Source: Promethearchaeota archaeon (GTDB lineage Archaea; Asgardarchaeota; Lokiarchaeia; Sigyniarchaeales; SOKP01). Taken from it: a stretch of 33,744 nt of DNA. The stretch lies in NCBI GenBank assembly GCA_016839745.1, contig JAEOTS010000123.1, positions 1 through 33,744 on the forward strand, given 5' to 3'. Positions 7,810 to 33,015 of this stretch are shown piece by piece (positions within the stretch are counted from its first letter, which is position 1; each line of letters opens with the position of its first letter). Under the pieces are notes generated by a model. The model was not told the DNA's origin and made no database searches. It saw only the letters and a list, made by a program, of their open reading frames with translations. The position numbers and the translations under genes were made by a program.

Positions 7810-7934
7810 AGCGGGGTGGGCTAGCCTGGTTTATGCCGCAGGGCTCATATCTCGACAATGTGTGGAAAAAAGAAATTTTTCACGCTTTTGGATGAGAAAC
7901 CCTGAGATCGTTCGTTCAAATCGAACCCCCGCTA
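7810..7934 (+). tRNA. Initiator tRNA-Met(CAT) with a 49-nt intron at 37/38 (7850-7898)
   Basis: Acceptor AGCGGGG/CCCCGCT with A1-U72, anticodon stem CAGGG/CCCTG (three consecutive G-C pairs), loop CT-CAT-A^A, T-loop TTCAAAT, BHB core CTCA/TGAG. CCA is not encoded. Confidence 0.95.
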
Positions 7935-20826: not shown

Positions 20827-20931
20827 ATATGTAACCACAAATTTTTAATACAAATTTTATAATTATATTTATACTATTATTATTATTATTTTTTCACTAG
20901 GATAATTAAATCTAAAAAATTGGAAAAAAAA

Positions 20932-21537
20932 ATGCCCACTGATCCAGCCACTGTTGTTAACAATTTATTACAAAGAGATCCCAGTATTATTGCTGCTGCT
21001 TTAGTTCAAGGAAGAGATACTATTCTTTACTCAACAGATAATTGGGACGTTAGCGCTGATATTAGTAGAGTTATCTCAAGCTGGAATAGTTTGACAGCTC
21101 AATTTATCATGATTTCAGGCGTGAAATACTCTGTTCTTCAATGTACTTCGGAAAGATTGGTAGCTACTTCAATTCGAGGTGAAGGTCACATTCTTGGAGC
21201 AAAAGATGAAGAACATAAATTAATTATTTATCTTGAACCTGACGGCGAACCTATGGGAGCAACGATGGATACAGCGAGAGCGCTTTCACAACTAAGCTCA
21301 AAACAAACCTATATGGACGGTAACGCTCAATTAGGTGGTGCAAGCAAGCCTTCTGCCTCGGTTGGAGCGAATATCGACCCACAATTGAAGGGGGAAGTCC
21401 AATCCTTCCTAGAATGGATTAAGGATAGTGAGGGGTTATCGGGATACATCAATTATTATCTTCAACAAAACAATACTTCTATTATTTCGGAGCTTTCAAA
21501 AATCTACGCCGAGTTAAGGCAAATATTTGGAGTATAA
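20932..21537 (+). CDS. Profilin-like protein with C-terminal extension
   Basis: ILYSTDNWDV and ISGVKYSVLQCTSERLVATSIRGEGH match the Loki profilin pattern as I recall it (TENW.I, I.GIKY....TEER..GTN..G.GH). Confidence 0.8.
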   Translation: MPTDPATVVNNLLQRDPSIIAAALVQGRDTILYSTDNWDVSADISRVISSWNSLTAQFIMISGVKYSVLQCTSERLVATSIRGEGHILGAKDEEHKLIIYLEPDGEPMGATMDTARALSQLSSKQTYMDGNAQLGGASKPSASVGANIDPQLKGEVQSFLEWIKDSEGLSGYINYYLQQNNTSIISELSKIYAELRQIFGV

Positions 21538-21614: not shown

Positions 21615-22124
21615 GTGAGAGTATTGGAGAATTCAGGCAAGAATACCAAAGAGGTTTCAAAAAACAAAGATGACAAACTTCTATCAGATAATATTTCGTC
21701 CAAAAATCAAGTTACTGGTAAAAGTAAAGGGCAATCAGAAGGTGTAAAGACAAAAAAGAAGGGGAAAAAACATCTCTCAACTGAAGAAGAATTAGATATC
21801 CCTTTAGTTCCCGAATCCCCGAAACAAAAGGATAAAATAACGATTAATTCTCCTGGACTTTCCGCTGACTTGGTTACACAAATGAAAAAGCTTGAGTCAG
21901 AAAAAAACAAGGTCGTTTTAGTAAATTGTGAACGTTGCAAGGAAATAATTGCCGTGCCTATTCCTAGAGTTTTTGTTTTAAAGTCTGAGTTACCAGTTGT
22001 TCCCATAAGCTATATTCACAAAAATTCTAAGAAAAAAGATCAACATTGTATTACGCTTCATCTTGATCATGATTTCGACATACGTAGGCAACGAATTTCT
22101 GATGTAGTTTTTGCTCCTAAGTAA
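21615..22124 (+). CDS. Hypothetical protein with disordered N-terminus and C-terminal CxxC/H/H metal-binding domain
   Basis: Lys/Ser-rich N-half, then CERC...YIH...HCITLHLD.DF.IR. Start is GTG 21615 or TTG 21624. Confidence 0.7.
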   Translation: MRVLENSGKNTKEVSKNKDDKLLSDNISSKNQVTGKSKGQSEGVKTKKKGKKHLSTEEELDIPLVPESPKQKDKITINSPGLSADLVTQMKKLESEKNKVVLVNCERCKEIIAVPIPRVFVLKSELPVVPISYIHKNSKKKDQHCITLHLDHDFDIRRQRISDVVFAPK

Positions 22125-22393: not shown

Positions 22394-22495
22394 TAAAAAT
22401 CAATGACTAAAATTTTTTAAAAGAATTAAAAAATATGCTGTATACTATATTATATAATTTTATTGTTAATTTATATAATAAAGACATTGTTTTAT

Positions 22496-22501
22496 AGGTG
22501 A
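22496..22501 (+). promoter_or_regulatory. Shine-Dalgarno AGGTGA preceding the ATT start
   Basis: Matches the archaeal GGAGGTGA consensus, 7 nt before ATT 22509. Confidence 0.7.
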
Positions 22502-22508
22502 GTAATCG

Positions 22509-23312
22509 ATTTCTGGTTATATAGGTAAAAGAATTAGATTAGAGAGGATTTTCAACCGGGAAACAAAAAGAACAATCATAATTCCCATGGATCATGGGTT
22601 AACTGAGGGACCCATTAAAGGAATCGACAGAAATTTAGGAGATATGGTTAACAAAATAGCTTTAGGAGGGGCAAATGCAGTTTTAGGCCATATAGGGATT
22701 CCACTTTATGCCCACAGAGGATATGGTCCAGACATTGGCTTGATTTTGCATTTATCCGGTTCAACTTCGCTAAGTCCGGAATCAAATTACAAGGTATTAG
22801 TCAACGACGTATTAGAAGCTGTAAAGTTAGGTGCTGATGGCGTCTCTTTACACATTAACATTGGAACAAAAACAGATCCAGAAATGTTGGAGATTTTAGG
22901 AAAGGTTTCACGAGAATGCCGAGAATTCGGGATGCCCCTTTTAGCTATGATGTACCCTAGAGGCGAAAATGTCGAAGACGAACACGACGCTCAGGTTGTT
23001 AAAATTGCAGCAAGAGTTGCTGCGGAGCTCGGTGCAGATATCGTAAAAACCAATTGGACAGGAGATCCCGATTCTTTCAAGGAAGTCGTTGACGGATGTA
23101 TGACCCCAGTAATTATCGCGGGAGGCGTGAAGGCAGGTATTAAAGAGCTTTTAGAAATAACAAAACAATCAATAGATGTTGGTGGTGCAGGAGTCGCGTA
23201 CGGTAGAAATGTTTTTCAATCGGAAAACCCAAGGAAGGTCGTGAAAGCGCTTCATTTAATCGTTCACGAGAATTATGGAGTAAATGAAGCCATAAAAGAA
23301 TTGAGATTATAG
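22509..23312 (+). CDS. DhnA-family class I aldolase (ADH synthase AroA' or fructose-bisphosphate aldolase)
   Basis: PMDHG, GADGVS.H, AMMYPRG, ELGADIVKT and GRNVFQ motifs. The conserved GKRIRLERIF N-terminus lies upstream of the track's ATG. Inferred ATT start at 22509. Confidence 0.9.
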   Translation: MSGYIGKRIRLERIFNRETKRTIIIPMDHGLTEGPIKGIDRNLGDMVNKIALGGANAVLGHIGIPLYAHRGYGPDIGLILHLSGSTSLSPESNYKVLVNDVLEAVKLGADGVSLHINIGTKTDPEMLEILGKVSRECREFGMPLLAMMYPRGENVEDEHDAQVVKIAARVAAELGADIVKTNWTGDPDSFKEVVDGCMTPVIIAGGVKAGIKELLEITKQSIDVGGAGVAYGRNVFQSENPRKVVKALHLIVHENYGVNEAIKELRL

Positions 23313-23349: not shown

Positions 23350-23718
23350 ATGAAAGCTATCATCGAAAGATCAAAGCAGTTAGATAGAATTAAAATATAT
23401 ATTTCAATTTTTAAATTACATAAAAGTTATCTCGTACTTATTTCCGACCAAGAGACTATGGGTATAGGAAATGTAACTTTAGGGATCCCCCCTTCAATTG
23501 AAGGTATGAAAGTATCAGCAGCCACTCATCAATTATTCGGAGTTCAACAAAAAATATTAAGTAATATTATTGTTGAAAAGACATCTTCCTTTTTGAACGC
23601 CCCTGTATTATTACTGCTGTTTTTAAAATCTGTAAGAGATGATCACGAGATTTCTAAACCATTAATATTATTTTTAAATGAGATATTAATTGACATACCA
23701 AAAAACGGCAACGATTAA
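23350..23718 (+). CDS. Putative proteasome assembly chaperone 4 (PAC4/PAC3)-like protein
   Basis: 122 aa. SYLVLISD...IGNVTLGIP...LFG...LS.II.EK.....PVLL pattern resembles PAC4. Confidence 0.55.
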   Translation: MKAIIERSKQLDRIKIYISIFKLHKSYLVLISDQETMGIGNVTLGIPPSIEGMKVSAATHQLFGVQQKILSNIIVEKTSSFLNAPVLLLLFLKSVRDDHEISKPLILFLNEILIDIPKNGND

Positions 23719-23748: not shown

Positions 23749-23908
23749 TACAGGGAGTGGGACTCGAACCCACGTAGAGCTATCTCACCGGATATCCCAT
23801 CAGAAACTCCGTTAATCAACGGAAGTGTTTAATATTGATCTTGAATCCGTGTTGTGAGAATTTTTCTCACAAAAGTCCGGCACCGTTGACCAACTTGGTT
23901 ATCCCTGC
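23749..23908 (-). tRNA. tRNA-Leu(CAA) with two introns (30 nt at about 32/33, 23874-23845; 46 nt at 37/38, 23839-23794)
   Basis: Acceptor GCAGGGA/TCCCTGT with A73, Leu-type D loop, long variable arm GAG-ATAG-CTC, T arm GTGGG-TTCGAGT-CCCAC. Double splicing gives CCGGA-CT-CAA-GA-TCCGG. Confidence 0.85.
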
Positions 23909-32673: not shown

Positions 32674-33015
32674 CTATCGTTTATTGGTGTATCTCATCCG
32701 TTCCTGAATTAGAATATTTTCTTCAGGAAATCCTAAGTCAATTAGAAATTTCTTTAGTTTGAATTTGTGATCACCTTGAAGTTCGATCTCGTTTCCTCTA
32801 ACTGTTCCTCCAGAAGCACATTTCCTTTTAGCTTGCGTAAGAATATCTTTTAAATTCGCATCTATGTTCCCCTCGAACTTGATAACTGTAACCACACGCC
32901 CCCATTTACGTCGATCGTTAGAAATAATAATTTGTTGTTCATCTGCGCTTAAACTATCGCATATACATAGGTCTTTCGGAAAACTACATATAGCACAAAT
33001 ATCGTCGTCTTTAAT
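32674..33015 (-). CDS. sui1: Translation initiation factor aIF1 (SUI1), inferred ATT start
   Basis: The frame extends 40 codons upstream of the track's GTG: (I)KDDDICAICSFPKDLCICD...RRKWGRVVTVI...CASGGTV...IELQGDH. Both the CxxC..CxC knuckle and the SUI1 motifs are present. Confidence 0.92.
   Translation of the reverse strand: MKDDDICAICSFPKDLCICDSLSADEQQIIISNDRRKWGRVVTVIKFEGNIDANLKDILTQAKRKCASGGTVRGNEIELQGDHKFKLKKFLIDLGFPEENILIQERMRYTNKR

Follow-up and report, generated by a model that had tools for sequence, protein, structure and literature searches.

The closest parallel to the locus described here is provided by the non-canonical starts of Staphylococcus aureus, in which AUU (cvfC1) and AUA (ccpN, citZ and infC) start codons are conserved, all lie behind extended Shine-Dalgarno (SD) sequences and give about 10% of the output of AUG (PMC13009471). 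AUU starts are classical in Escherichia coli, in infC, which encodes IF3 and is under translational autocontrol, and in pcnB, as summarized in PMC4705826 and cited in PMC13009471. According to PMC4705826, which draws on earlier biochemistry, aIF1 of Sulfolobus solfataricus blocks 30S complexes on an AUU model mRNA. Ribosome profiling of Haloferax volcanii classified about 30% of the putative alternative start sites as near-cognate, and these sites were set aside by the authors (PMC7261190). In a cultured Lokiarchaeon, SD sequences were judged not to be prevalent (PMC7531240), and SD-led starts are likewise a minority in the genome studied here. Our literature searches found no paper on ATT or ATA starts in Asgard archaea.

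The gene reported here lies in a 33,744-nt stretch of DNA (the window) from the genome of an uncultured Lokiarchaeial archaeon. It encodes a predicted metabolic aldolase, 2-amino-3,7-dideoxy-D-threo-hept-6-ulosonate (ADH) synthase, and we consider it probable (about 0.87) that its translation starts at an AUU codon by SD-directed near-cognate initiation. The gene resembles the S. aureus cases in that AUU/AUA is conserved in relatives, a strong and well-spaced SD precedes the codon, and ordinary metabolic and regulatory genes are affected. It differs from them in that the S. aureus set consists of four genes with measured output in a bacterium with IF3, whereas the present set comprises dozens of genes, known from sequence, in an archaeon with aIF1, aIF1A and aIF2. 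With E. coli infC the gene shares a weak AUU start whose use would depend on a start-codon fidelity factor; however, its product is no initiation factor, and the infC-like case in the window is the aIF1 gene. A single AUU-started gene is already of a known type; more novel is that near-cognate initiation extends across a whole family of archaea whose fidelity factors are of the eukaryotic type. The features of the locus are collected in Table 1.

Table 1 Features of the ADH synthase locus and related genes. Positions are those of the window unless a contig of this genome (G000) is given.
Feature	Position	Strand	Remarks
Complete CDS, predicted ADH synthase (AroA', DhnA-type class I aldolase), 267 aa + stop	22509..23312	+	TIGR01949, PRK07226, PF01791, MJ0400
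Candidate TATA-like promoter box CTATATTATATAATT of the aldolase gene	22445..22459	+	Best-conserved block of the divergent intergenic region in the congener alignment
Shine-Dalgarno AGGTGA	22496..22501	+	7 nt ahead of the proposed start codon; complementary to congener 16S 3' end
In-frame TAA	22503..22505	+	Frame closed two codons ahead of the proposed start
Proposed ATT (AUU) start codon	22509..22511	+	Sole start-like codon between the stop and conserved SGYIGK
Internal ATG, Met27 of the PMDHG motif	22587..22589	+	Start chosen by gene callers limited to ATG/GTG/TTG
Initiator tRNA-Met gene, anticodon CAU, intron of ~49 nt after position 37	7810..7934	+	Rfam tRNA model, 44.6 bits, E 7.8e-9
DhnA-family paralogue	G000:C15:1890-2672	-	Further copy in genome
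DhnA-family paralogue	G000:C77:28293-29033	+	Further copy in genome

The first-pass annotation had recognized the product as a DhnA/ADH-synthase aldolase, and this identity is supported by a full-length match to NCBIfam TIGR01949 above the curated equivalog cut-off (330.4 bits against 299.45), in which residues 6-264 are covered by profile positions 1-255 and profile position 1 falls on the residue encoded at 22521 when the frame is translated from 22506. The protein also scores 368.4 bits with PRK07226 (cut-off 241) and matches PF01791, the DeoC/LacD TIM-barrel aldolase family (6.4e-57), and reaches just 193 bits with NF040816, the archaeal (class I) FBP aldolase model, whose cut-off is 430. 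MJ0400 of Methanocaldococcus jannaschii (PDB 2qjg/2qjh/2qji) is an enzyme of the same type; residues 6-267 of the Asgard protein align with its residues 10-271 (phmmer E 3.3e-89), including the GKxxRLERIFNRE segment, and PMDHG and GADIVKT are both retained. MJ0400 differs by nine extra N-terminal residues before the aligned part, and the Asgard protein is known here from its sequence. The Lys of VKT is the residue that we take to be the Schiff-base residue of MJ0400-type aldolases. The enzyme would catalyze the first step of the archaeal DKFP route to 3-dehydroquinate in the aromatic amino acid pathway, the predicted reaction being the conversion of DKFP and aspartate semialdehyde to ADH. Its pathway partner DHQ synthase II (PF01959, 345 bits) is encoded elsewhere in the genome (G000:C105:39811-40890), not adjacent to the aldolase gene. 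The two DhnA paralogues of the genome are 63% and 36% identical to the aldolase protein, and in the five congeners that were read the copies about 60% identical to it start at TTG or GTG.

Direct reading bears out the layout around the start that had been noted earlier, namely AGGTGA, an in-frame TAA and ATT in succession. Reading codon by codon and the list of open reading frames likewise agree that ATG, GTG and TTG are all absent from this frame between the TAA and the internal ATG. The ATT is followed by TCT GGT TAT ATA GGT AAA AGA ATT AGA TTA GAG AGG, and further on in frame by CCC ATG GAT CAT GGG, from whose ATG the listed open reading frame is 241 aa long. The 7-nt spacer between AGGTGA and ATT (G-TAA-TCG) includes the in-frame TAA. 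The next in-frame stop upstream is a TAA at 22479-22481, and no start codon lies between the two. An upstream open reading frame or translational coupling was considered and is ruled out, the frame being shut by that TAA with no start in between. The divergent intergenic region upstream of the aldolase gene is 115 nt long. If the candidate box at 22445-22459 is a TATA element, the transcript would start near 22478-22485 and its leader, about 25-30 nt long, would include the SD. Were the promoter instead a second TATA-like run at 22470-22479, transcription would begin no earlier than the SD itself, and the SD reading would then fail.

To put the proposed AUU start on a comparative footing, the first-pass annotation had suggested a nucleotide alignment of orthologues. 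For this, 77 orthologues were taken from 11 genera of the family, with seven more from other families of the same order. The alignment supports the start, as ATT or ATA stands at the same codon in 41 of the 77 family orthologues (38 ATT and 3 ATA), the others having TTG (11) or ATG (25, one of them with its ATG one codon upstream of the aligned position). All seven orthologues from outside the family have ATG. Among the 31 species of the genus to which this genome belongs, 25 have ATT, three ATA, three TTG and none ATG, and ATT was found at the start position in four further genera of the family. The ATT TCT GGT of this genome is aligned with ATG TCT GGT or TTG TCT GGA in orthologues, and where orthologues from other genera have ATG, it stands at precisely the position of this ATT. 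In 36 of the 41 ATT/ATA orthologues, the stretch from the upstream stop to the conserved N-terminus is free of in-frame ATG, GTG and TTG; in the remaining five, a GTG or TTG is present 3-5 codons upstream of ATT, within or beside the SD. In the gene tree, the copy studied here falls within a well-supported clade of 19 species, all of which have ATT or ATA together with GGTGA. Because ATT/ATA recurs in 41 of the 77 orthologues and the codons that follow it are conserved as protein yet synonymously variable, this layout is more than chance.

The segment between ATT and the internal Met evolves as coding sequence. In 18 congeners, codons 2-26 (25 codons) have a dN/dS of 0.040 with a dS of 1.7, compared with a dN/dS of 0.066 (dS > 1) for the rest of the aldolase gene. 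This strong purifying selection on the sequence indicates that the 25 codons after ATT are translated. In the same congeners Ser2, Gly3 and Tyr4 are invariant and their codons vary (TCT/TCG/TCC/TCA, GGT/GGC/GGA and TAT/TAC), whereas the codon ahead of ATT varies freely (TCG, ACT, GCA) and is itself preceded by a stop in most species, so translation begins at the ATT position. In 18 of the 31 same-genus orthologues just one open codon precedes ATT. The conserved GKxxRLxRI N-terminus, which the earlier reading of the DNA had placed upstream of the PMDHG Met, is thus real protein-coding sequence, being both alignable with MJ0400 and under purifying selection. In an alignment of 22 proteins, six positions of the segment ahead of the internal Met never vary (R, E, R, I, R and P). 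An AlphaFold model built from 22 sequences is poor, with a mean pLDDT of 59 and values below 50 in the N-terminal third.

The 16S rRNA gene is absent from this assembly, and the anti-SD was therefore taken from two genomes of the same genus, in which the 3' tail reads ...GGATCACCTCCT. AGGTGA pairs with it over 6 nt, in agreement with the strong SD claimed from the sequence of the window. An SD match of 5 nt or longer, with its aligned spacing unchanged, precedes 37 of the 41 ATT/ATA starts, compared with four of 11 TTG and six of 24 ATG orthologues; the association between SD and start-codon class (Fisher p ~1e-7) is calculated on raw counts and is inflated by relatedness, and an independent-pairs test on the tree contains just one well-supported contrast, too few to bear the association out. 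Metagenomic ATG relatives from ENA also have no such SD. Since the ATG relatives mostly lack a strong SD, a weak codon with a strong SD and an ATG mostly without one look like interchangeable settings of a single initiation site.

The initiator tRNA gene was located by a pattern search together with a local Rfam search, having been missed by ARAGORN (with and without intron mode) and by Rfam at the gathering threshold. The Rfam alignment places a 51-nt insertion after CAU, and direct reading shows A1:U72 and an anticodon stem that includes three G:C pairs. The initiator is an ordinary one with a CAU anticodon, so that its pairing with AUU would include a mismatch at the third position; no initiator-like tRNA bearing a different anticodon turned up in the pattern search. 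In the proposed mechanism, AGGUGA would pair with the 16S rRNA 3' tail and position AUU 22509 in the P site, where Met-tRNAi, encoded in the same window, would read it, and the protein would then begin (M)SGYIGK. As in comparable known systems, the first residue would be Met, which is probably removed before Ser. We infer an efficiency below that of AUG and a sensitivity of the start to the level of aIF1.

The claim of a real AUU start is therefore backed by purifying selection on the codons that follow, by alignment of the position with ATG in relatives and by a conserved SD at a fixed 7-nt spacing, and it was weighed against other readings of the same DNA. The internal ATG 22587 is the first canonical start of the frame, and database entries of 241 and 243 aa for the closest relatives would agree with a 241-aa protein whose upstream frame is an untranslated leader. 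We regard such a leader as highly improbable, given the dN/dS of 0.04 and the many synonymous changes in the 25 codons concerned, their alignment with MJ0400 residues 10-31 and TIGR01949 positions 1-22, the replacement of Met27 by TTG (Leu) in one congener and two paralogues, and direct reading of the sequence ahead of ATG 22587, which found no SD. A misread or misassembled ATG, or a decaying pseudogene, might be suspected in a metagenome-assembled draft of 192 contigs and 89% completeness, but the gene is unbroken and the purifying selection on it is strong, and 38 independently assembled species have ATT and three have ATA, which makes this explanation barely conceivable.

Recoding would offer another way for translation to begin, either from the GTG at 22498-22500 within the SD by a -1 frameshift or by an elongator Ile-tRNA at AUU that gives an N-terminal Ile. 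Non-Met initiation at CUG is known in mammals. The GTG does exist, in another frame, but that frame ends after eight codons and offers no slippery site, orthologues with GAGGGA and TTG or with ATG lack the GTG altogether, and the tRNA pattern search speaks against an alternative initiator; we consider recoding very unlikely. SD-directed initiation at AUU 22509 is accordingly the reading that we adopt for the locus below.

The first-pass annotation had regarded the aldolase as support for AUU initiation independent of the aIF1 gene, and had proposed a genome-wide scan. Both points stand, as the aldolase is one of dozens of such genes in the genome and the scan yielded 56 SD-led ATT/ATA/ATC/ACG candidate starts. 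A raw count of the triplets after every GGTGA in the genome recovered coding periodicity only, with no enrichment even of ATG, and the scan was therefore limited to the 5' ends of open reading frames; a codon qualified if it followed any 5-mer of AGGAGGTGATCC at an aligned distance of 5-7 nt and stood close to the 5' end of an open frame 100 codons or more in length. Relative to shifted controls, ATG, TTG and GTG are 6- to 10-fold enriched at these positions, ACG about 3-fold and ATA about 2-fold, whereas most other codons are depleted. The 56 ATT/ATA/ATC/ACG sites lack any canonical start upstream, and downstream at least the first 10 codons are free of one; the control codons AAA, AAT, TTA and TTT, when placed identically, usually have a canonical start only 1-3 codons away.

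In a Pfam test, 12 of 20 candidates carry a domain that runs from profile position 1-4 near the proposed codon, well ahead of the first canonical start. Examples supported in this way are Ras, Gtr1/RagA, response regulator receiver, C5 DNA methylase, IGP dehydratase, SMC_N, Metallophos_2, PIN_6 and Thr_synth_N. The candidates include a Pfam-confirmed phosphoesterase (C93:60589), a cupin (C17:6411) and a DHPS-like gene on contig C106 whose N-terminal extension lies outside the Pfam coverage. The second hisB paralogue (G000:C88:141-743, minus strand) has an ACG start behind GAGGTGAATTAAA; a congener (G016) has TTG at the same hisB codon with an identical SD, and the other hisB copy (C157) has ATG behind AAGGAGG. 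By a rough count made independently of the SD, 111 of 2675 likely genes have coding-like extensions of at least 25 codons, 64 of these without a strong SD; near-cognate starts may not all depend on an SD. As a side observation on small numbers, near-cognate starts are enriched behind SDs of the AGGTG, GGTGA and GTGAT types and not visibly behind AGGAG or GGAGG, and ATG uses both.

In an 800-kb sample (C1:1000001-1800000) of G032, the complete genome of a sister-family member (31% GC), SD-led ATG starts are present and SD-led ATT/ATA/ATC/ACG starts are not enriched. The sample has four near-cognate and eight control sites, compared with 15 and three in a sample of like size from the present genome (p 0.009), and the near-cognate habit may be specific to the family within its order. 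ADH synthase exemplifies a habit that is wider in this Lokiarchaeial family, with dozens of ATT/ATA/ATC/ACG-started genes per genome.

It had been suggested from the window that such genes form an aIF1-sensitive set. The set exists; its sensitivity to aIF1 is inferred only from the Sulfolobus biochemistry related in PMC4705826. The sole SUI1/aIF1 gene of the genome is located in the window at 32674-33015 on the minus strand, and the first start-like codon after its in-frame TGA is an ATT (33015-33013), with no ATG, GTG or TTG until inside the SUI1 domain. In sister families the aIF1 start appears to be ATG (G038 and G026), is most likely TTG (G032) and is perhaps ATA (G030). A connection between the near-cognate habit and the start codon of aIF1 would be a correlation of two genomes, this one and G032, and is only a lead. 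An autoregulatory circuit of the infC type was not found at the aldolase gene; because its product is a metabolic enzyme and not an initiation factor, ADH synthase cannot autoregulate as infC does and is at most a passive target of the aIF1 level. Overall, the pattern resembles a habit shared across the family more than a small regulon.

Whether the weak codon carries regulatory meaning is a separate matter from the position of the start. The AUU start may be real and yet reflect AT-biased drift (the genome has 32% GC) between equivalent states instead of an aIF1-sensitive regulon, with ATG changing to ATT or ATA where a strong SD makes the loss tolerable and changing back where the SD decays. 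This is a serious contender that we hold at somewhat less than even odds. At least eight changes between near-cognate and canonical starts are required within the family on the best gene tree, strong SDs go with ATT/ATA and weak or no SDs with ATG, the affected genes (GTPases, response regulators, hisB, methylase and SMC) are functionally unrelated, and at the start of the hisB paralogue ACG stands opposite the TTG of the congener, the SD being identical. Compensation is favoured by the frequent switching along the tree and by the covariation with the SD. On the other hand, none of the 31 species of the genus has returned to ATG despite dS > 1, and this absence at saturated synonymous divergence hints at selection that keeps the weak codon; in addition, aIF1 in the same window also lacks a canonical start, which would fit a regulatory circuit.

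Taking the AUU start as real, we tentatively propose, with a confidence that falls a little short of an even chance, that the start-codon stringency of this family is below that of other prokaryotes studied, possibly since aIF1 is itself made from AUU, that SD strength and start codon serve as two exchangeable dials of output, and that several per cent of the genes, including housekeeping genes, are set on AUU, AUA, AUC or ACG. At the ADH synthase locus both dial states occur: ATT behind a strong SD, and ATG where the SD is weak or missing. As a single gene with its own leader and with natural variants of both kinds (ATT with SD, ATG without SD) in close relatives, it offers a clean test case. 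Because aIF1 is a eukaryote-type fidelity factor, a lineage near the eukaryotic stem with AUU/AUA housekeeping starts behind bacterial-style SDs would be a natural system for studying how the stringency of start-codon choice is set and has evolved.

The start also matters for annotation. One GenBank orthologue (GCA_019894655.1, JAGXNZ010000086.1), 88% identical, is annotated with 267 aa from an ATT after AGGTGAT; that annotation was made automatically in a single record and neither describes nor tests the phenomenon. In JGI, ENA and Logan, the entries for the closest relatives are shortened to 241 or 243 aa, beginning MDHGL. Callers limited to ATG, GTG and TTG thus remove 26 conserved residues from ADH synthase in the closest relatives, and the same clipping would affect dozens more proteins per genome and distort phylogenomics, domain inventories and structure prediction in Asgard archaea.

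The aldolase gene stands outside any aro operon, with a divergent small gene on one side and an ORF of 122 codons of unknown nature on the other. The surrounding ORFs at 20920-21537, 21615-22124 and 23350-23718, all on the plus strand, have no Pfam match at E < 0.001. Just 3' of the aldolase locus, a 160-nt tRNA match of 41 bits (23749-23908, minus strand) evidently contains at least one intron.
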